Shown: positions 1,791-60,017 of the stretch, piece after piece | Position numbering within the stretch: the stretch's first letter is position 1 | Layout of the letters: each line of letters starts with the position of its first letter | Source: Candidatus Parcubacteria bacterium | GTDB lineage: Bacteria > Patescibacteriota > Saccharimonadia > UBA4664 > JBIOIQ01 | Direction: 5' to 3' | Assembly (NCBI GenBank): GCA_963718875.1 | Contig: OY970378.1 | Location: 477,373 to 541,372, forward strand | DNA length: 64,000 bases | Program-made: the position numbers and the translations under genes | The notes under the pieces: generated by a model | Told to the model about the DNA's origin: nothing | Database searches by the model: none | What the model saw: only the letters and a program-made list of their open reading frames with translations

Positions 1791-2048
1791 ATGAGTTTTT
1801 ATGACTTTTTTGTAAACTTATATAACCAGTTTTTGGCTTTGTTCCCGGAGCCATTGCAGTGGCTTATAACCTTGATTGTGGTGATAAGCCTGGTAATTGC
1901 ATTCATTAGCCTGATTCGTTCCAACTGGCTGTTTTTAATTGTTTTGATTTTGTTGCTGCCAGTGGTCTTTCCAGTGTTGCAGCGTTTCTTTGCTGATGTT
2001 TATAACTTTTTTCTGTATTTGCTCAGTTTGCTGCATTTTACGGGCTAG
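1791..2048 (+). CDS. Small hydrophobic membrane protein, unknown function
   Basis: 85-aa ORF with two to three hydrophobic helices; no recognisable motif. Confidence 0.5.
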   Translation: MSFYDFFVNLYNQFLALFPEPLQWLITLIVVISLVIAFISLIRSNWLFLIVLILLLPVVFPVLQRFFADVYNFFLYLLSLLHFTG

Positions 2049-2087
2049 CATGATTGGCGTATCTAACGAGTCTTACTCTAGGCTATC

Positions 2088-2130
2088 TTGATAATTACGA
2101 TTGACATAATTATCAAAATGCTCTTATAAT
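2088..2130 (+). promoter_or_regulatory. Near-consensus sigma70-type promoter with overlapping inverted repeat
   Basis: TTGACA 2101-2106, 18-nt spacer, TATAAT 2125-2130; 10-bp inverted repeat TTGATAATTA (2088-2097) / TAATTATCAA (2107-2116) brackets the -35. Confidence 0.65.
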
Positions 2131-2136
2131 CAGCCT

Positions 2137-2842
2137 AACCAGGTGAGGTGATCTGGTAGTCCGCAACTCGGCGGATGATTTGACTGTGGGGGTAGCTACG
2201 TGCAGTGCAGATCCAGTAAGGCTGTGATTTTAAGGCGAGCGTCCGTCAGGATCATACGACTTAGAGAGGAGCTTGATGCTATCCGGCGTGCGATTCGGGA
2301 TGTTCACCCTGGTCTCAAGATGGAAGATCTGGAGGGAATGAGTGGCAGTGAGCTACTTGAGCTTTGCGCTCTGGGCTTGATGGGTGAGCCCAGTTCACTC
2401 CGAACGGTTTATCCGGGTTGCGACCAGGAGGACTTTTCGATCACAGCTACTCGGCTCGCATGACCGCTCGCAGGGGTGGCCTTGTGCTGGTGCGAGTTGA
2501 AGGAGCGAAGGGCATTGGTTTCACGTTCCGAACCCTTGTTCCTGGCATCTGCCCGACCGACCGCATCAAGCCGGTGAGTGCACCGAGCGGGAAGCAGAAG
2601 TGGCGGCCGTGAAAGGTCAAGTCACGCTCCAGCAGGTGCGAGATCTCAGGGAAGGGCTGGTGGCGGCACTTGAGGCTGCCTTTCCAGGTTCGATGTTCTG
2701 CCACCTTTCCCTCAAAGAGCTCGCTCTTCTGGAATACGGGGACATTGACTGGCATCAGTACGTTTCCAGTCCATAAAGCATCAACGGATGCAGTCCCGCC
2801 ACCCCTGGGCTACCAAGCTCGGGGGTGGCGGGTTTCGCTTTT
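2137..2842 (+). ncRNA. G+C-rich ~700-nt transcription unit of unknown nature (structured RNA, long HIT leader or decayed foreign gene)
   Basis: Bounded by the promoter at 2101-2130 and the terminator at 2795-2842; only short overlapping ORFs in several frames and on both strands; composition visibly richer in G+C than the flanks. Confidence 0.35.
2795..2842 (+). terminator. Intrinsic terminator
   Basis: CCCGCCACCCC (2795-2805) pairs with GGGGTGGCGGG (2822-2832), followed by TTTCGCTTTT. Confidence 0.75.
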
Positions 2843-2861
2843 AATGAGTTATTATTGGGTT

Positions 2862-3212
2862 ATGAATGATTGTTTATTTTGTTCGATTGCCAATGGCGAT
2901 GTTGAAAAGTTGGTGTGGAGTAATGATGTGGCAGCGGCTTTTAATGATATTAACCCCAAGGCACCTGTACACATCCTGGTGGTGCCCAAGCAACATATTG
3001 AAAATCTCGATGAACTAGACGATCCGGGGCTCGCCGGTAAGCTTTTGATGGCAGTAAGGGAAGTGGCCGTGCAGGCGGGGGTAAAAGGGGCGTATCGCGT
3101 GCATTTGAATAACGGAGAAGCGGCTGGACAGGTTATTCCGCATCTGCATTGGCATATATTGGCGAGAAGTTCTGTAAATGAGTTGGATAAATTACGGGAT
3201 CAAGGGTTGTAA
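2862..3212 (+). CDS. HIT-family (histidine triad) nucleotide hydrolase
   Basis: MNDCLFCSIANGD start and histidine triad HLHWHIL near the C-terminus; upstream part of ORF 2670..3212 overlaps the terminator, so ATG 2862 is preferred. Confidence 0.85.
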   Translation: MNDCLFCSIANGDVEKLVWSNDVAAAFNDINPKAPVHILVVPKQHIENLDELDDPGLAGKLLMAVREVAVQAGVKGAYRVHLNNGEAAGQVIPHLHWHILARSSVNELDKLRDQGL

Positions 3213-3232
3213 GCTCAAAACGATCGTTTTTA

Positions 3233-3261
3233 TTGACCTTATGTGGATTCTAGCTTAGTAT
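3233..3261 (+). promoter_or_regulatory. Sigma70-type promoter
   Basis: TTGACC 3233-3238, 17-nt spacer, TAGTAT 3256-3261. Confidence 0.55.
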
Positions 3262-3267
3262 ATTTCT

Positions 3268-3606
3268 TGCTTTACAACTCAACCGAACCAGGGGGTCTTC
3301 GCTGTGTCAGGCAGAATCGACCGGCCAAGAAGCGGCAAGCATGCGGCGCACGATTCTACGAGGCATTACCGCAACTGGAGAGCTCTTCCCGATCAGGGTT
3401 CGGAAGCATCGACAGCTTCTGAGCTACAGAGTGGAGGTTCTTCGTCAACACCGGCGGTCCGTATTGACCGGAGGCGGTCTCTGAGCGCACTTCTGTCACC
3501 GCAACAGCTTCGTCGGCTTTCGTCGTAACCAACAACAGCCTGGGTTCTCGAGCTTTTGCCACCTGGCCTGCACGAAGTTGTGTGGGTCAGGTGGCTGTTC
3601 TTTTTT
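3268..3606 (+). ncRNA. G+C-rich ~340-nt candidate structured RNA, unclassified
   Basis: Promoter at 3233-3261; terminator GCCACCTG (3558-3565) / CAGGTGGC (3588-3595) plus T6 at 3601-3606; local hairpins (AGAATCG..CGATTCT, GAAGC..GCTTC) and a long-range GAACCAGG/CCTGGGTTC pairing; ORFs in both strands are Arg/Ser-rich and look like junk. Confidence 0.4.
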
Positions 3607-3705
3607 AGGTTGATTGAACGCATGTTTTGTTGTAAAATGCTTTAGTCGTAAGAGCATTGTCTCTTGGAAGCCATATAATAACTAATATGGCTTTATATCA
3701 CACTT

Positions 3706-3936
3706 TTGAAGGAGGTGATTGTATTGTTGCAAGTAGTCCGCAAGGATGAAAAAGAGTCTCTAGAAAATCTAATTCGCCGCTTTAATAAAAAAGTTCAGCA
3801 ATCGGGAATTCTAGGTATAGCTCGTCGTAAAAAATATTTTGAGAAGCCTTTAAGTAAGCGTGAACAGCGCGAAATTGCCATTCGCAAATCTGCCCGTAAG
3901 GAGCTTAAAGCTAAACAATATTTGGGTGTAAAATAA
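3706..3936 (+). CDS. rpsU: 30S ribosomal protein S21
   Basis: Basic 70-76 aa protein ..ESLENLIRRFNKKVQQSGI..; GGAGG at 3711-3715 suggests the true start is TTG 3724/3727 rather than 3706. Confidence 0.85.
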   Translation: MKEVIVLLQVVRKDEKESLENLIRRFNKKVQQSGILGIARRKKYFEKPLSKREQREIAIRKSARKELKAKQYLGVK

Positions 3937-10335: not shown

Positions 10336-10412
10336 GGGGACTAGGTGTCTGGGCTATGACACGTCTTGCATTATCGGTGCAAGGAAGGAGGTTCAAATCC
10401 TCAAGTCTCCAC
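10336..10412 (+). tRNA. tRNA-like gene: Ala-type acceptor stem, canonical D and T loops, aberrant anticodon arm
   Basis: Acceptor GGGGACT/AGTCTCC with G3:U70 and discriminator A; D stem GTGT/ACAC with a GG-containing loop; T loop GGTTCAAATCC; anticodon arm is a 7-bp helix with loop TTATCGG (central triplet ATC) and only a 2-nt variable region; CCA not encoded. Confidence 0.5.
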
Positions 10413-10890
10413 TGCAGTACCTACCAAAACCAAAAAAGGGGAAAGTAGTGAGAAATTCTGTTCGAAGCCTCCCTGGATGGACCACCTGTTCTCTTCACTT
10501 TGGGGCGAGTTCTATCGCAGAAGCTCGGGTGAAAGCTCTAGGGTTGGTGGGCATGGCCGATGACGCCTCAGTTAAGGCGGCATTAAGGGGCTGGACCATC
10601 AGGCAGGTGATAGTTCGGGATGAGCGTTTCATCGCTTTGGTCGCAGAGCTAGAAGTTCTTGGAGTACATCTCAAAGAAAAGGGCGTTCCGCGCTCGTGGA
10701 GGGTCTCGAAAGAAGAAGCTTCAACTCTCGCTGCTCAGTAGTACAGGGAGTCGTCCATCTGATGGGAGGAAGCCCAAACAGGGTGGACAAGGGTGCTGCA
10801 AAAAGTTTTAAAGTTGGCGATCCTAACTTTGAGACTTGGCCTCCGAAAGACGTGATAACAGCGTGTCTTTTGGGGGCCTTACCCATGTTA
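10413..10890 (+). other. G+C-enriched segment of uncertain coding status, downstream of the tRNA-like gene
   Basis: ORF 10334..10741 begins inside the tRNA-like element; only its C-terminal ~60 codons (MADDASVKAALRGW..EEASTLAAQ) look protein-like. Confidence 0.25.
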
Positions 10891-16861: not shown

Positions 16862-16953
16862 GTTAAGGCTCAAATATTGGATTGCTACTTGAAATATTTA
16901 TAATCAACACATATAATGGTGGTACCGTCAATCAAGCCTTAGGAGGCCGACGA

Positions 16954-17499
16954 ATGCTCAAGAGACCCCTTATCACGCGTCCGATTGAGGATGTTGTCGC
17001 GGACATCCTCGATCTCGATCTCGGACCGATCAGGTTCACGCTCGTTCGTCGAGGCTGGACCGGAGGTCTGGCTGACCGCTTCATCACGGAGTACCGCCGC
17101 CTTCTTGAGCTGATGGTGCGGTTTCCAGATGATGTCATCGTCCCTTCGGAGGACGTGGATACCGTCTGGCACACCCACATCCTCGACACGGCCAGGTACC
17201 GCGATGACTGCATGCGGATCTTCGGCTTCTTCCTCGACCATTTCCCGTATTTGGGCACGCGTGGATCTGACGACGAGGATGAACTTCGTCGGCTGTACAC
17301 CCGATCGCGGGAGCTGTATGAGCAGACGTTCGGCCATCGGACGGTGTCTACGGCATCGGCCTGCTCCGCGTTCGGAGCTGGGAATGGAGATGTACCCGTT
17401 CCAGCTCTGGTTGGAGCAGCCACAGTGGCGTATTGTGGCGGGGGTGGCGGAAAGCCGTCGTCTGCTCCTAGCTACCACCAAGGTGGTAGCTGTGGCTGA
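16954..17499 (+). CDS. G+C-rich foreign-looking gene: glycine-rich-domain (GRDP/DUF1399-like) protein
   Basis: AGGAGG 7 nt before ATG 16954; DTVWHTHILDT motif and Gly-rich tail; G/C-biased third positions; strong hairpin GTTGATGGTGGCGG..CCGCCACCATCAAC downstream. Confidence 0.6.
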   Translation: MLKRPLITRPIEDVVADILDLDLGPIRFTLVRRGWTGGLADRFITEYRRLLELMVRFPDDVIVPSEDVDTVWHTHILDTARYRDDCMRIFGFFLDHFPYLGTRGSDDEDELRRLYTRSRELYEQTFGHRTVSTASACSAFGAGNGDVPVPALVGAATVAYCGGGGGKPSSAPSYHQGGSCG

Positions 17500-17628
17500 G
17501 GGTCTTGAAGTAAGGTTGATGGTGGCGGTTACGGCCGCCACCATCAACTTGATACAAATGTTTATGAAGTTAGCTCGTTCGCACCATAACCGGTAATCTG
17601 GTACAATCTACTCTAGAAACGAGGGATT

Positions 17629-41237: not shown

Positions 41238-41315
41238 ACTTGTGAAGACACTTTTTTTGCGCTAAATTAAAGCCAGCGCCGGACCAGCCGTCGCCTGTTT
41301 CGTGGAGGATGAATC

Positions 41316-41723
41316 TTGAGCCCACTTGAGGTTGCCGCTCTGAAGAGCCTGAATAAGGCTCGCAGAGCATGGGGATTGCCTTCGTGGCCGGCGCTGGTTC
41401 CGGCTACACCGTCCGACCCCTGTGGATGCGAGTTCTGGAAGGGGCTGGTCGACGGAGACCCATTGGTCTCGGTCGGAGCAGATCACATCATTGCTGGCCG
41501 AGATGCTGCTCGAGTCATCTATGCCGCCTTTGGCAGACTTGATGACGAGGGGAGAAGATGGGAGGTTCTGAGGGGAGATCTGGTCAAGATCAGGATGAGA
41601 GATACTCTCGCGAGCTTCGTGGAGGCCTTCGACGAGCGCCGTTTTCCTCATCTCATCGACGACGAGGCGGACGAGGCGTACCGGGTTAAGAGGGCGGCCG
41701 AGCAGACATTGGTTTCTGCCTAA
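41316..41723 (+). CDS. G+C-rich foreign-looking hypothetical 135-aa protein
   Basis: GGAGG 7 nt upstream of TTG 41316; acidic C-terminus; composition differs from flanking lysK/serS; the overlapping minus-strand ORF is judged an artefact. Confidence 0.5.
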   Translation: MSPLEVAALKSLNKARRAWGLPSWPALVPATPSDPCGCEFWKGLVDGDPLVSVGADHIIAGRDAARVIYAAFGRLDDEGRRWEVLRGDLVKIRMRDTLASFVEAFDERRFPHLIDDEADEAYRVKRAAEQTLVSA

Positions 41724-41738
41724 TTGCTGCGCAACATG

Positions 41739-41780
41739 ATCCACCGTCGGTGGGGGGTTATCCCTCCACCGACGGTGGAT
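41739..41780. terminator. Strong G+C-rich palindrome / terminator
   Basis: ATCCACCGTCGGTGG..CCACCGACGGTGGAT, 15-bp perfect arms. Confidence 0.7.
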
Positions 41781-41830
41781 TTAAGGTCACGGATTTATTA
41801 TTTAGCTACAAAGACGTATAATAGTAGTCA

Positions 41831-51336: not shown

Positions 51337-51403
51337 TGCAAGCAGTTATTGTTTCGTTAACTAGGGGAGACCTATGATGTTAGCGAAACGTTATCTGCTT
51401 GCA
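51337..51403 (+). promoter_or_regulatory. 25-nt inverted repeat upstream of the G+C-rich island
   Basis: TGCAAGCAGTTATTGTTTCGTTAAC (51337-51361) vs reverse complement of GTTAGCGAAACGTTATCTGCTTGCA (51379-51403); four mismatches. Confidence 0.5.
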
Positions 51404-51512
51404 TGAAACTGTGCAAGCGAGGATTCGACACTTAGTCGAATTCAGTTGCTCTACCGAACATACAGAAACCACAGACCAGGGTGAGAACTCTGGCAGAGCA
51501 AAGGAAAAGACC

Positions 51513-52448
51513 ATGTCCGACCAGACCGGAGGACCCGGTACCACCGCCCCACCCCGCCGACCCACGCTCCAGGAGCTCGCCGACCAGGCGAGAGCCACGA
51601 TCGAGGAGCAGGCTCGACAGGCGAATGACCTCCAGGGTCAGCGCTCCGCCATCAACGCGATCAGCGGTCGAGTGGCGCAGCACGACGACGCCATCGCTGA
51701 CCTCCGGGACGCTTCGGCCCAGCAGGCCGACGCCGTGGACCGCCTCGGCCAGCGCACGCTGGTGGTCGAGGGACGCACGGACTCGTTGGAGGACTTGGCT
51801 CGCGCCAACGCCGCCGGCGTGGCCGGGCTGACCGCCAACATGGCTGACCTGACCACCAACGTCAACACGCTGGCCACCACGGTGGGCCAGCACGACACCC
51901 GTCTCGACGCCGTCGAGGACGCCGTGACGCCGGCCGCTATGCGGACGGTCGTCACCGAGGTGGTCGAGGAGCGCATGCGCGCTGTTCGGTTCAACTGGGT
52001 GGCCTTCGCCGTGGTGGCGATCGTGGGCTTCATCATCGACCTGTTGGTGTTCTCCGAGATGGGGAGCTTCAACAGCGCCGAGGCGCCGAAGCTCTCCAAG
52101 CACCTCACGGACGTCATGCACACGCAGAACTTCCTGGCCGTCATGCTCGTTGTCCTGGCCCTCGCCATACTCATCGCCCTCATCGTTCCGGTGGTCGGGC
52201 AGGACGAGCGTCCCAGGCAGGACCGCCAGCCCAGGCCGCCTCGGCAGCCCGGATCCGGCGGTGGTTTCATGGCCGGTCTTCGCAACGTTTGGAGGAGGGG
52301 TCGCGGTACGCCCGCTGCCACTGCGCCCATCCCGGCCAACTCCACGCCGGTGGCGACGACGAACCCGTCGGCCTCGTCCAACGCGCCCACTCAGGTGCTG
52401 CCGGCGGTGCCGACGTCCGGTCCGACGCCCTCATCGGGCAACCCGTAG
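51513..52448 (+). CDS. High-G+C island gene A: coiled-coil protein with two TM helices and a Pro-rich tail
   Basis: AAGGAAAAG before ATG 51513; third codon positions almost all G/C; Ala/Asp/Leu periodic N-terminal ~160 aa, TM helices FNWVAFAVVAIVGFIIDLLVF and FLAVMLVVLALAILIALIVPVV, then RPRQDRQPRPPRQPGSGGG.. Confidence 0.7.
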   Translation: MSDQTGGPGTTAPPRRPTLQELADQARATIEEQARQANDLQGQRSAINAISGRVAQHDDAIADLRDASAQQADAVDRLGQRTLVVEGRTDSLEDLARANAAGVAGLTANMADLTTNVNTLATTVGQHDTRLDAVEDAVTPAAMRTVVTEVVEERMRAVRFNWVAFAVVAIVGFIIDLLVFSEMGSFNSAEAPKLSKHLTDVMHTQNFLAVMLVVLALAILIALIVPVVGQDERPRQDRQPRPPRQPGSGGGFMAGLRNVWRRGRGTPAATAPIPANSTPVATTNPSASSNAPTQVLPAVPTSGPTPSSGNP

Positions 52449-52517
52449 TCCACGCGGTTCTTCAAGTGGATTGTCCCAATTCAAATACCTCCTAGCGTCA
52501 AGCAAAGAGGGAACAAC

Positions 52518-52547
52518 CCTCTGTCCGCCCTTCGGGGCGGACAGAGG
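52518..52547 (+). terminator. Hairpin terminator after island gene A
   Basis: CCTCTGTCCGCCC-TTCG-GGGCGGACAGAGG. Confidence 0.7.
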
Positions 52548-52647
52548 AGCAACTTTTACTTCCATGGATAGTAGTCCGCGTGAGAAGCAATTCTTACTCG
52601 GTTTCTGTTCATGGTGCAATCGGCACCCAAACGATAAGGAGGGTGCC

Positions 52648-53826
52648 ATGAGCACCAGAAGAGGTCCTGTTCTGATCATCGTGTGTCTGCTGATGGCAGC
52701 GGGGGCTTTGCTGTTCAAGTACGGCAACGGCCCAACGCCGGCAGTGGCACAGACGCCGCCCACGGTGCCCGTTTCGGACGTCTGCAAGGACGTCCCGGGC
52801 AACGTGCCGAGGTGGTTTGCCAAGGAGACCGACGGCAACAAGTTCGGTCCGGCGGCTCCGTTTGACCTTGGTCCCGCCAGGAAGGCTCAGCACGAGGTCC
52901 TGTGCCTCGACCCGGCCAACCTGGTGATCACCCAGGAGACCATCGACGGGAAGTTCAGCAGTCCGGCAAACCGGGCTGCCCGGACTCGCGTTCTCGTTGC
53001 CAACCCCACTGCGCGGTTGGCAGCGGTGGCCTATGTGCAGGCAGAGTTGGCCAAGGCCAAGGAGGTTCGGCTGGAGGTCCACACGGGACCCTACCAGACC
53101 TTCTACATGACCACCGACGGCGACGTGCCGGAGGTGTTCCAGTCTGCAGGGAGCTTCACCGAGGCACGGCACGTTCTCGTGTACGACTTCGGTAACGGTC
53201 GCACGGTCAACTTCGTACTGGAGTGCAACTTCCAGGGGGAGTTCCCCGGGCCGGTCAAGAACGTGCCGGTGGCAACGCCGGGCACTGTGCCGGCGCTGGT
53301 TCAGCCGGGGCCCACCAGCCCGCCGCCGACGACGTGCCAGTCGACCAACACCTGTTCGACCGTGACCAGCCCACCGCCCGTGTGCTGCGGACCGCCCCCG
53401 ACGACGTGTCAGGTCAACTGCGGTCCGCCCCCGACGACGTGTCAGGTCAACTGCGGTCCGCCGCCGACGACGTGTCAGGTCAACTGCGGTCCGCCGCCGA
53501 CGACGTGTCAGGTCAACTGCGGTCCGCCGCCGACCGTTTGCACACACAAGTGCGCGGGAGAGGACGTTGCGGTCAGTCCGAGTCTGGATCCTGTCGTTTC
53601 GGGACTGGCTGCGGGCAATGCCGCACCCACTGCGGTGGCAACACCGGTCGTGACGGCGCCTCCGGCGCCGCCTCCGCCCGTGACCACAGCCACGCCACCC
53701 GTGACGGCTCTGCCGTCCTCCGATGGCGTGGCAGCTCCACCGCCTGTAGTGGCTCCACCGTACGTGGCGCCCGATGCGGGCACTCCGTCCAACCCGACGA
53801 CGGGAACCATTCCGCCGCCGCCGTAG
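52648..53826 (+). CDS. High-G+C island gene B: secreted or anchored protein with CGPPPTTCQVN tandem repeats and a Pro/Ala/Val-rich tail
   Basis: AAGGAGGG RBS 5 nt before ATG 52648; N-terminal signal/anchor MSTRRGPVLIIVCLLMAAGALLF; ~220-aa globular region; 11-aa Cys/Pro repeats; ORF track start 52150 overlaps gene A and the terminator. Confidence 0.7.
   Translation: MSTRRGPVLIIVCLLMAAGALLFKYGNGPTPAVAQTPPTVPVSDVCKDVPGNVPRWFAKETDGNKFGPAAPFDLGPARKAQHEVLCLDPANLVITQETIDGKFSSPANRAARTRVLVANPTARLAAVAYVQAELAKAKEVRLEVHTGPYQTFYMTTDGDVPEVFQSAGSFTEARHVLVYDFGNGRTVNFVLECNFQGEFPGPVKNVPVATPGTVPALVQPGPTSPPPTTCQSTNTCSTVTSPPPVCCGPPPTTCQVNCGPPPTTCQVNCGPPPTTCQVNCGPPPTTCQVNCGPPPTVCTHKCAGEDVAVSPSLDPVVSGLAAGNAAPTAVATPVVTAPPAPPPPVTTATPPVTALPSSDGVAAPPPVVAPPYVAPDAGTPSNPTTGTIPPPP
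53386..53535 (+). repeat. 33-bp tandem repeat, about 4.5 copies, in frame within gene B
   Basis: TGCGGTCCGCC(C/G)CCGACGACGTGTCAGGTCAAC repeated head to tail with one or two substitutions. Confidence 0.95.
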
Positions 53827-54037
53827 GACACCACTTCTGCCCATTCGGGCAGGGGTCTACCCCAGGGTCTGGGGTGGTGCGCAAGCGCCACCCCGCCCTG
53901 TGGGTATACATATTCTTAATGATTTTGGATTATTCGATTGCTCCAAGGGTTAGTGCCCTTTAACATTTAGCGTCCAACTTAACTTGTAGATCATATTAAA
54001 TTCATTTTAACGTTCATTATTTAAAAGGAGAGCACAT

Positions 54038-58755: not shown

Positions 58756-58904
58756 GAGTTAGGGACTAGTAGATCGTAGAGTAGATAGGTAAATTTCTCA
58801 ACACTAGCTACACAATCTCTGGATCAAATAAAGCAATAGCGGTTTGACAGCGTAACTGTTATGGATATAATGTAAAGCGTGTGATGAACCTGGGGGAGGA
58901 ATAG

Positions 58905-60017
58905 TTGAACGCAATGTCGAAGAATATTAGATTAAAAAAATTATTTACAACACTGATGGCAGCATCGGTGTTATTGTCTTTGGGTTTCCCGGTACACGCC
59001 GATGATTTTGATACCCAAATTAATAATTTACAGGCTAAAATTAGTGAGCAAAAGGCTGCTTTGGGTGCGTTGCAAACCCAAGCTGATACACTGGAAAACA
59101 AGTTAGCTGGAATAAATGCCCAGGTAACAGCTATTACTAACCAACTGGAACTAACATCGGCTCAGCTACGGCAAGTCAATATTCGCATAGAACAGCTGAA
59201 TCAACAGATGGCCAAACAAAAAGCTTTCTTAGCCAATAATATTAAAACTATGTATTTGCAAAGTTCAACTTCGCCACTAGAGGTTTTGCTATCCAGTGAG
59301 AGCCTGAGTGACTATTATAATAAGCAAGAATATCTAGAAAAGATCAAGGAAAAGATTCAGGAGACTTTAGAAAGTTTACTGGCTACCAAGAAAGACCTGG
59401 ACGGGCAGCAGAAACAGCTGGCTGATTTAACTGATCAACAAAAAACCCAGCAACAAGCGTTAGTAGCCCAACAGCAAGAGGCTAGCAATCTCCTAGCCCA
59501 GACGCAAGGGCAAGAAGCGGCTTATCAATCGATGGTGGTGGAAACCAATAAACAGCTGCAAGGAATTGTGGCTGCTCGTGCCGAAGCTATCCGTAGGGCT
59601 GGTATTAAGTTTTCATCGTCGGGCTGTGGAGGGTACCCGGCCGTTTGGTGTAATGCCGTTCAAGATTCAATGGTAGACGACTGGGCTTTTTATAATCGAG
59701 AGTGCGTTAGTTATGTAGCCTGGAAGCGTTGGGCGTTAGGTATGAAGCCTCAGCCAAACTACTGGGGTAATGCGGCTGACTGGTATCGATATGTAAACTC
59801 CAGCACACCTCACAGCGGCGATATAATTGTTTGGCGGGCCTATGCCAACCCATACGTAGGGTGGGCTGGTCACGTAGCGTTTGTAGAATCGGTAAATGGG
59901 TCAACTGTCACAATGAGCCAATTCAATTTTGATGTCGGGACTGGCCCAGGTAGGTTCAGTATTCTAACATTGAATATTGGCGATCCAATCCTTCAGGGCG
60001 CTGGATACATCCGTTAA
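58905..60017 (+). CDS. PcsB-like secreted coiled-coil plus CHAP-domain peptidoglycan hydrolase
   Basis: Signal peptide, ~200-aa Gln/Leu-rich coiled coil, C-terminal CHAP (..RECVSYVAWK.. Cys, ..GHVAFVESV.. His). Confidence 0.8.
   Translation: MNAMSKNIRLKKLFTTLMAASVLLSLGFPVHADDFDTQINNLQAKISEQKAALGALQTQADTLENKLAGINAQVTAITNQLELTSAQLRQVNIRIEQLNQQMAKQKAFLANNIKTMYLQSSTSPLEVLLSSESLSDYYNKQEYLEKIKEKIQETLESLLATKKDLDGQQKQLADLTDQQKTQQQALVAQQQEASNLLAQTQGQEAAYQSMVVETNKQLQGIVAARAEAIRRAGIKFSSSGCGGYPAVWCNAVQDSMVDDWAFYNRECVSYVAWKRWALGMKPQPNYWGNAADWYRYVNSSTPHSGDIIVWRAYANPYVGWAGHVAFVESVNGSTVTMSQFNFDVGTGPGRFSILTLNIGDPILQGAGYIR

Follow-up and report, generated by a model that had tools for sequence, protein, structure and literature searches.

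Organization of the unit upstream of HIT

Within the 64,000-nt stretch of Candidatus Parcubacteria bacterium DNA analysed here (contig OY970378.1, positions 477,373 to 541,372; hereafter the window, whose positions serve as coordinates throughout), the region immediately upstream of a gene encoding a HIT protein is occupied by a G+C-rich unit (2088-2842, plus strand) in which three small open reading frames (ORFs), designated ORF1, ORF2 and ORF3, lie between a consensus promoter and a strong terminator, and which we discuss below as a candidate operon of small orphan proteins [Table 1]. Its G+C content is 56.6% over positions 2137-2790 and reaches 60.7% in 300-nt segments, compared with 45.9% for the window as a whole. 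Related loci were fetched with their flanks using HIT as the anchor and are referred to by the labels L001, L002, L081-L089, L091, L092 and L096. The neighbouring genes of the window encode HisRS, a Band-7 protein, an 85-amino-acid (aa) membrane protein, HIT, ribosomal protein S21, YqeY, YbeY, DAGK, adenylate kinase and methionine aminopeptidase.

Perfect TTGACA-N16-18-TATAAT sites, such as the promoter of the unit, occur twice in the window where 0.02 would be expected; the other one (TTGACA-N16-TATAAT, 58844-58871) lies just 5' of a gene starting near 58905. From the spacing of the promoter elements, transcription of the unit would start near A2137. The operator-like inverted repeat that flanks the -35 hexamer can be extended to 13-nt arms with 92% complementarity, and its right arm read together with the -35 itself gives TTGACA-N4-TATCAA. 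Perfect 10-bp inverted repeats with a spacer of at most 12 nt account for 28 overlapping matches at 14 sites of the window, against approximately one in shuffled sequences, those other than the promoter repeat being mostly terminators. A perfect 11-bp inverted repeat (TTTGACGCTAA-N7-TTAGCGTCAAA, 1704-1732) with the same TTGAC...GTCAA flavour as the promoter repeat lies 5' of the gene for the 85-aa membrane protein.

The predicted plus-strand transcript, of approximately 700 nt, begins with a stem-loop that may play a part in mRNA stabilization and has a leader of 63 nt ahead of ORF1. The three ORFs each occupy a different plus-strand frame and are chained by their stop and start codons: the TGA of ORF1 (2461-2463) overlaps the ATG at 2460, and that of ORF2 (2610-2612) overlaps the GTG at 2609 in the frame of ORF3 (GTGA). 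The plus-strand ORFs together cover 88% of the length of the unit, compared with 52 ± 23% in shuffled sequences (p = 0.036). Between the T-tract that closes the unit and the ATG of HIT (2862) are 19-20 nt.

A preliminary description of this DNA, made from its letters and ORFs, had reported the TTGACA-18-TATAAT promoter, a 10-bp inverted repeat around its -35 (TTGATAATTA/TAATTATCAA), the raised G+C content and ORFs of 87 aa on the plus strand and 102 aa on the antisense strand (2447-2755), all of which are present as described. The terminator upstream of HIT proved stronger than the 11-bp stem attributed to it, and promoter, operator-like repeat and terminator together support the proposal that the unit is transcribed autonomously from the plus strand.

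Table 1. Features of the unit and of the adjacent HIT region (window coordinates).
Feature	Position	Strand	Details
Operator-like inverted repeat	2088-2116	.	Arms TTGATAATTA (2088-2097) and TAATTATCAA (2107-2116), flanking the -35
Sigma-70-type consensus promoter, TTGACA-18-TATAAT	2101-2130	+	-35 at 2101-2106, -10 at 2125-2130; 12/12 match
5'-terminal stem-loop of the transcript (predicted)	2138-2157	+	ACCAGGU/AUCUGGU, 7 bp; in minimum free energy and centroid folds
Shine-Dalgarno-like GGGGG	2188-2192	+	7 nt before the GTG of ORF1
ORF1	2200-2463	+	87 aa, GTG start; predicted helical small orphan protein; best-supported gene of the unit
ORF2 (coding doubtful)	2460-2612	+	50 aa; ATG 2460 overlaps the stop of ORF1 (ATGA); 64 aa if started at TTG 2418
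ORF3 (probably coding)	2600-2776	+	58 aa; GTG 2600 with GGGAAG 5 nt upstream; second GTG at 2609
Intrinsic terminator	2795-2842	+	Stem 2795-2832, 17 pairs of which 13 G-C, followed by TTTCGCTTTT
HIT gene	2850-3212	+	ATG 2862 to 3212; -10-like TATTAT at 2850-2855, 6 nt before the ATG; Pfam HIT, E = 6e-23
Second, analogous cassette 3' of HIT	3233-3605	+	Promoter TTGACC-17-TAGTAT, GGGGG Shine-Dalgarno motif, 17-bp terminator at 3558-3595

ORF1 and its homologue in a related locus

The status of ORF1 as a real gene is well supported by sequence comparison. In the related locus L082, the same position beside HIT is held by an 81-aa ORF (233-478), the product of which (P0098) aligns with ORF1 end to end (78 of its 81 residues) with a single gap and 27% identity over 78 aa (BLASTP E = 2e-5); the Smith-Waterman score of this pair is 54, compared with 23.6 ± 4.2 for shuffled sequences, none of 2000 of which reached 54. 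Twelve of the 22 identical residues are encoded by different codons, including pairs such as TTA/CTC and AGG/CGT, and the interior of the unit cannot be aligned with that of L082 as nucleotides, though ORF1 aligns as protein. Both ORFs start with a GTG placed seven nucleotides after GGGGG, both encode a C-terminal ...LA-stop and both overlap the next start. The claim of the preliminary description that the unit contains no convincing ORF is thus contradicted by an intact ORF homologous to the 87-aa frame, a finding which that description had itself named as one that would speak against it.

Identity by codon position is 0.46/0.52/0.40 for the ORF1 pair and 0.74/0.91/0.42 for HIT, which, coming from a single pair, is modest evidence; the similar third-position values fit an orthologue that has diverged over the same time as HIT under weak constraint at positions 1 and 2, and favour rapid divergence over replacement as the history of the ORF1 cistron. 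The G+C content of ORF1 by codon position (0.66/0.45/0.52) resembles that of the G+C-rich genes at 16954-17499 and 41316-41723, which are intact (0.65/0.49/0.65). AlphaFold2 predicts a long helix (residues 6-35) and, after it, two short ones, with a predicted local distance difference test score (pLDDT) of 72 overall and above 85 for residues 11-50; the first helix is rich in Arg, a property not conserved in L082. ORF1 is called as a gene by public pipelines, and its exact sequence and its spacing to HIT recur in an independent 29-kb short-read assembly. Two sequences make up the family in a set of 5.8 billion protein clusters, and a phmmer search of 1.84 billion representative proteins returned only ORF1 itself and two tandem-repeat artefacts.

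Conserved expression signals and variable cargo in related loci

The closest HIT proteins in public databases belong to metagenome-assembled genomes of Candidatus Saccharimonadia and Patescibacteria; the organism is accordingly a bacterium of the candidate phyla, of TM7 type. Foremost among the related loci is L082 (HIT 77% identical), whose TTGACA-18-TATAAT promoter is identical at 12 of 12 positions and is overlapped by a perfect TTGACA-N4-TGTCAA palindrome (TTGACAATATTGTCAA), and which shares with the window the CCTGG/CCAGG 5' hairpin and the GTGGGGGT-N6-GTG start. Its cargo consists of the 81-aa ORF, a GTGA-overlapped second ORF found in the same place as ORF2 and unrelated to it in sequence, and a third ORF behind AGGAGG, followed by a terminator that can be aligned with that of the window. 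L081 (HIT 80%) has a TTGACA..TATAGT promoter with the repeat TGACA-N4-TGTCA (5/6 of TTGACA-N4-TGTCAA), CCAGG/CCTGG arms at the same place as the 5' hairpin of the window, two ORFs joined by ATGA and a terminator. In L085 (HIT 63%), TTGACA-17-TAGGAT, with ACAAATTTGT directly after the TTGACA, precedes a pair of overlapping ORFs (94 and 95 aa) with a terminator after them, while in L083 (HIT 90%) nothing but the tail of a different final ORF is visible ahead of the same terminator. Six loci retain the core of the terminator stem (CCCGCCAC/GTGGCGGG) 5' of HIT, with compensatory changes at 6 of its 11 pairs.

The unit is missing from other relatives. L091 represents an empty site in which the membrane-protein gene leads straight to HIT and then to S21, and four loci (L001, L002, L086, L087) carry an antisense SLT-type gene 5' of HIT instead. 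Among the species representatives of GTDB retrieved through HIT, the two closest (70% and 60% identity) carry an antisense SLT-like gene in place of the unit, and the others are from unrelated taxa. The foreign or accessory character that the preliminary description had considered for the unit is supported by the empty site and by the presence of a different gene in other relatives. We also note in L081 a segment of approximately 300 nt (580-880) that separates the cassette promoter from the membrane-protein gene and contains repeated CATAAGCC motifs and hairpins, and in which there is no called ORF and no Rfam match at gathering score.

ORF2, ORF3 and the antisense frame

ORF3 is probably coding, given that its G+C content by codon position (0.71/0.37/0.61) is the clearest coding-like pattern of the unit and, like that of ORF1, matches the intact G+C-rich genes mentioned above; its single-sequence AlphaFold2 model has a pLDDT of 79 and two helices. 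ORF2, the product of which would be basic (net charge +8), is doubtful as a coding sequence. Neither ORF2 nor ORF3 is called by public gene finders. A protein search with the concatenated ORF1, ORF2 and ORF3 gave no match at E ≤ 10, a negative that is unreliable in that the database entry of ORF1 itself was missed too.

Two further possibilities were considered. ORF1 and ORF3 look alike by eye (a helix, PG, L-S-x-x-EL), but BLASTP produced no alignment that would make them internal duplicates, and the idea was dropped. The antisense 102-aa ORF is rich in R, P, H and C, has no start signals and no homologue, lies in codon register with ORF3 and is read as its probable shadow.

HIT has a promoter element of its own

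In each of the 12 loci compared (L001, L002, L081-L089 and L091), six of which have no upstream cassette, HIT is preceded by a -10 hexamer (TATTAT, TATATT or TATAAT, often TGn-extended) that ends 6-7 nt from its start codon. A -10 box placed just 5' of the start codon is the geometry characteristic of leaderless mRNAs (PMC3160421, PMC4633059), which explains the missing Shine-Dalgarno (SD) sequence of HIT; a consensus -35 was not found. From this arrangement, the HIT mRNA is probably leaderless and HIT is probably not part of the unit. Of the earlier statement that HIT has neither a promoter nor an SD of its own, the second half therefore stands, and the first gives way to the TATTAT listed in Table 1.

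A candidate accessory operon of small proteins

Taking these observations together, we regard it as moderately probable that the unit is a self-contained, strongly promoted accessory operon that encodes two or three tiny, lineage-specific proteins and occupies a variable slot beside HIT, a housekeeping gene. The consensus promoter, whose -35 and spacer carry the conserved inverted repeat, would drive the plus-strand transcript, which would open with the short stem-loop and the leader and lead to the GGGGG and GTG start of ORF1; ORF1, ORF2 and ORF3 may be translated by coupling through the 4-nt ATGA and GTGA overlaps, and the terminator would insulate the putative leaderless promoter of HIT from read-through. 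The inverted repeat could serve as the operator of a repressor encoded elsewhere in the genome, in which case the unit would be repressible. Its persistence in relatives with unrelated cargo ORFs (L081 and L085, which keep a similar TTGACA-N4-TGTCAA or ACA-N4-TGT repeat) argues against a repressor encoded by the cargo, and for a host factor or shared ancestry. The products are predicted to be cytoplasmic helical mini-proteins, probably binding other macromolecules; no signal peptide, membrane segment or hydrophobic segment was seen in them.

Several observations weigh against this reading. The comparative support for ORF1 comes from one pair of sequences, and the in-register antisense frames of this pair score equally well (57 vs 54), so that the choice of the plus strand as the coding one depends only on the open frames and on the conserved translation signals (SD, GTG and stop). 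ORF2 lacks an SD and gives only a weak signal by codon position, and the searches made returned no homologue of it or of ORF3. The longest ORF, at 87 aa, compares with a mean of 83 aa in shuffled sequences, making its length alone not significant. Finally, no domain, fold or defence-system match was obtained for any product in Pfam, NCBIfam, PADLOC, PHROGs or a fold search.

Searches of other kinds were likewise negative. Neither phage and plasmid blastn and tblastn searches nor a scan of viral contigs returned a match for the unit; a scan of JGI metagenomes for the promoter/hairpin pattern yielded a single match, by chance, in an unrelated A+T-rich contig; and nothing specific was found in the literature on small proteins, leaderless genes or G+C islands of Saccharibacteria.

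Alternative explanations

The preliminary description had offered a large structured non-coding RNA (ncRNA), a long regulatory leader of HIT and a frameshifted foreign gene as candidate explanations, none of which is supported given that their premise, the absence of a convincing ORF, fails. An ncRNA of approximately 700 nt with incidental ORFs would account for the high G+C content in a lower-G+C genome, for the strong promoter and terminator and for ORFs no longer than chance, and the plus strand does fold better than the minus strand (z = -5.4 vs -1.5 with the terminator, -2.8 vs -0.4 without). The value of -5.4, however, comes mostly from the terminator hairpin, and that of -2.8 is no better than the scores of two coding G+C-rich islands of the window (-6.2 and -2.75), so that folding energy does not separate the unit from an mRNA. 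A search with the 4227 families of Rfam 15 (including RNase P, tmRNA, SRP, 6S, OLE, GOLLD, ROOL, HEARO, raiA, group I/II introns and riboswitches) gave no match at gathering score in the whole window, in agreement with the absence of known-RNA signatures reported earlier, and none in eight related loci; at E ≤ 10 over 1900-3750 no family was recovered beyond four chance-level matches to hairpins or the terminator, far below threshold, and ARAGORN found no tmRNA. While the unit resembles large ncRNAs (OLE, GOLLD, ROOL, HEARO, raiA) in being a G+C-rich island of their size (approximately 0.6-0.8 kb) with a strong promoter and terminator and no long ORF, it differs from them in having no covariance-model match, an unexceptional stability and no conserved nucleotide or structural core found between relatives. 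Only the 5' leader and the terminator could be aligned for covariation, the three-sequence leader alignment being uninformative, whereas the interior of the unit aligns end to end with that of L082 as protein, with synonymous differences, and conservation extends to typical mRNA features, namely SD, start codon and overlaps of stop and start. We thus hold an ncRNA to be improbable. A leader or attenuator acting on HIT is more improbable still, to the point of being hardly credible: the unit does end 19 nt before a gene that has neither an SD nor a consensus -35, but the -10 hexamer of HIT is kept even beside an antisense gene or in the absence of a cassette, and the terminator has no competing antiterminator in the predicted folds and a stem conserved through compensatory changes. 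The box and the strong conserved terminator both argue against such a role.

Two other explanations accept part of the coding evidence. In one, ORF1 would be the only real gene, and the 330 nt from 2464 to 2790 would be a long 3' untranslated region, a 3'-derived small RNA or the remains of decayed cistrons. The deficiencies of ORF2 and the failure of public gene finders to call ORF2 and ORF3 are consistent with this view, as are a strong local hairpin at approximately 2646-2716 in both the minimum free energy and centroid folds and a period-3 signal in the frame of ORF3 that begins near 2521, 5' of any start codon, and would fit a decayed longer ORF. Against it stand the exact ATGA and GTGA chaining, for which the same style of coupling is seen in L082 and L081, and the coding-like G+C pattern and confident helical model of ORF3; we consider it rather unlikely. 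In the other, a horizontally acquired gene would have been inactivated by two frameshifts (frame 1 to 3 to 2), as might be suggested by three consecutive ORFs in three frames spanning the unit, by its foreign-looking composition and by the horizontally spread genes, such as that of a GRDP-like protein, in other G+C-rich islets of the window. L082, however, has the same multi-frame layout with the stop of ORF1 at the homologous residue, indicating an ancestral stop rather than a lesion; searches of Pfam, NCBIfam, PHROGs and PADLOC, of the 1.84 billion representatives (with ORF1) and of phages and plasmids by tblastn yielded no intact homologue of greater length; and the independent short-read assembly argues against assembly indels. 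To this account, too, we give little credence.

Comparison with known systems and possible function

The small-protein operon that we favour shares with the orphan small-protein operons of flexible islets its ORFs of 50-90 aa with 4-nt overlaps, its own promoter and terminator, its deviating composition, a presence and content that vary among close relatives and the want of a database family. It differs from them in that its expression frame (the repeat-bearing promoter, the 5' hairpin and the CCCGCCAC/GTGGCGGG stem) is conserved while the ORFs in between are barely or not alignable. To our knowledge, no equivalent of this conserved expression frame has been described in Saccharimonadia. Small overlapping adjacent genes and a palindrome lying across a strong promoter, as in classic autoregulation, together with patchy distribution and atypical composition, are reminiscent of type II toxin-antitoxin systems, and the layout makes a role of that type, or a regulatory one, a reasonable guess, but no toxin or antitoxin domain was found in Pfam, NCBIfam, PADLOC or PHROGs, nor any significant fold match. 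Like integron cassettes, the unit has a fixed promoter ahead of short cargo genes that vary from relative to relative; here, in contrast, neither an integrase among the neighbours nor an attI or attC site is present, the terminator hairpin lacks an R'/R'' core, and the cargo may consist of rapidly evolving orthologues, given that ORF1 has diverged at third positions as much as HIT. Our best guess as to function is that of a fast-evolving accessory module, regulatory or addiction/defence-like.

In the tiny genomes of candidate phyla, an operon provided with one of the two perfect promoters of the window is probably worth its cost and might have a part in defence or in interaction with the host. 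Judged by composition and ORF length alone, the unit would have been mislabelled as a large ncRNA, where comparison with a few uncultured relatives points to a small-protein operon, which gene finders call only in part. Such an operon would be moderately unusual and would not overturn current understanding; its interest is modest unless the idea of a variable slot proves general. Two observations may be reusable: the leaderless geometry of HIT in this clade, and the fact that several G+C-rich islets are self-contained cassettes of promoter, gene and terminator, one or more of them horizontally spread.

A second cassette downstream of HIT

A cassette analogous to the unit lies 3' of HIT, in which ACCAGGGGG precedes a GTG at 3304 and a 74-aa, Arg-rich ORF (3304-3528) whose product is predicted to be unstructured; the folding z-score of this cassette is approximately 0. 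It is missing from L083, L084, L088, L091 and L096, where the promoter region of S21 comes immediately after HIT, and in L081, L082, L089 and L092 its slot holds other small ORFs. Between the 74-aa ORF and the slot ORFs of L081 and L082 (MSxxxRRGKH...) there is a weak resemblance (E ~0.2).

It is conceivable, if speculative and on balance unlikely, that the two intergenic regions around HIT are dedicated "expression slots" in which a conserved operator-controlled promoter, a 5' hairpin and a terminator frame diversifying or exchangeable orphan mini-protein genes. Were this so, the unit would be one allele of a hypervariable small-protein locus whose products might act, for example, as effectors or immunity factors in an episymbiotic lifestyle.

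Other G+C-rich islets of the window

The unit is one instance of the horizontally flavoured accessory islets of this reduced genome. An islet at 16867-17560 (62% G+C) with its own TTGAAA..TATAAT promoter, AGGAGG SD and terminator encodes a GRDP-like protein of 181 aa (Pfam PF07173). Homologues of this protein occur in an uncultured phage and on plasmids of Proteobacteria (Variovorax, Cupriavidus, Azospirillum and Pseudomonas) and of Streptomyces, and the islet was probably acquired horizontally. Another (41262-41790, 60% G+C) carries an orphan 135-aa ORF (41316-41723) and a strong terminator, with no match in Pfam or among phages. Two proteins, neither with a Pfam match, are encoded by an island at 51350-54000 with 72% G+C (51.4-53.9 kb): one of 349 aa that has a membrane segment, and a large secreted one, rich in Pro and Thr, with 4.5 near-perfect 33-nt repeats (CGPPPTTCQVN, 53385-53534). 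The composition of this island suggests a high-G+C organism as its source.

The 64-kb window yielded no standard tRNA. A tRNA-like element at 10336-10411, which ARAGORN reports as tRNA-Asp with the odd anticodon AUC and which scores 22.9 bits with the Rfam tRNA model (threshold 29 bits), may be a degenerate tRNA or the remnant of an integration site; 3' of it lies a G+C-richer segment (10440-10745) with an ORF.

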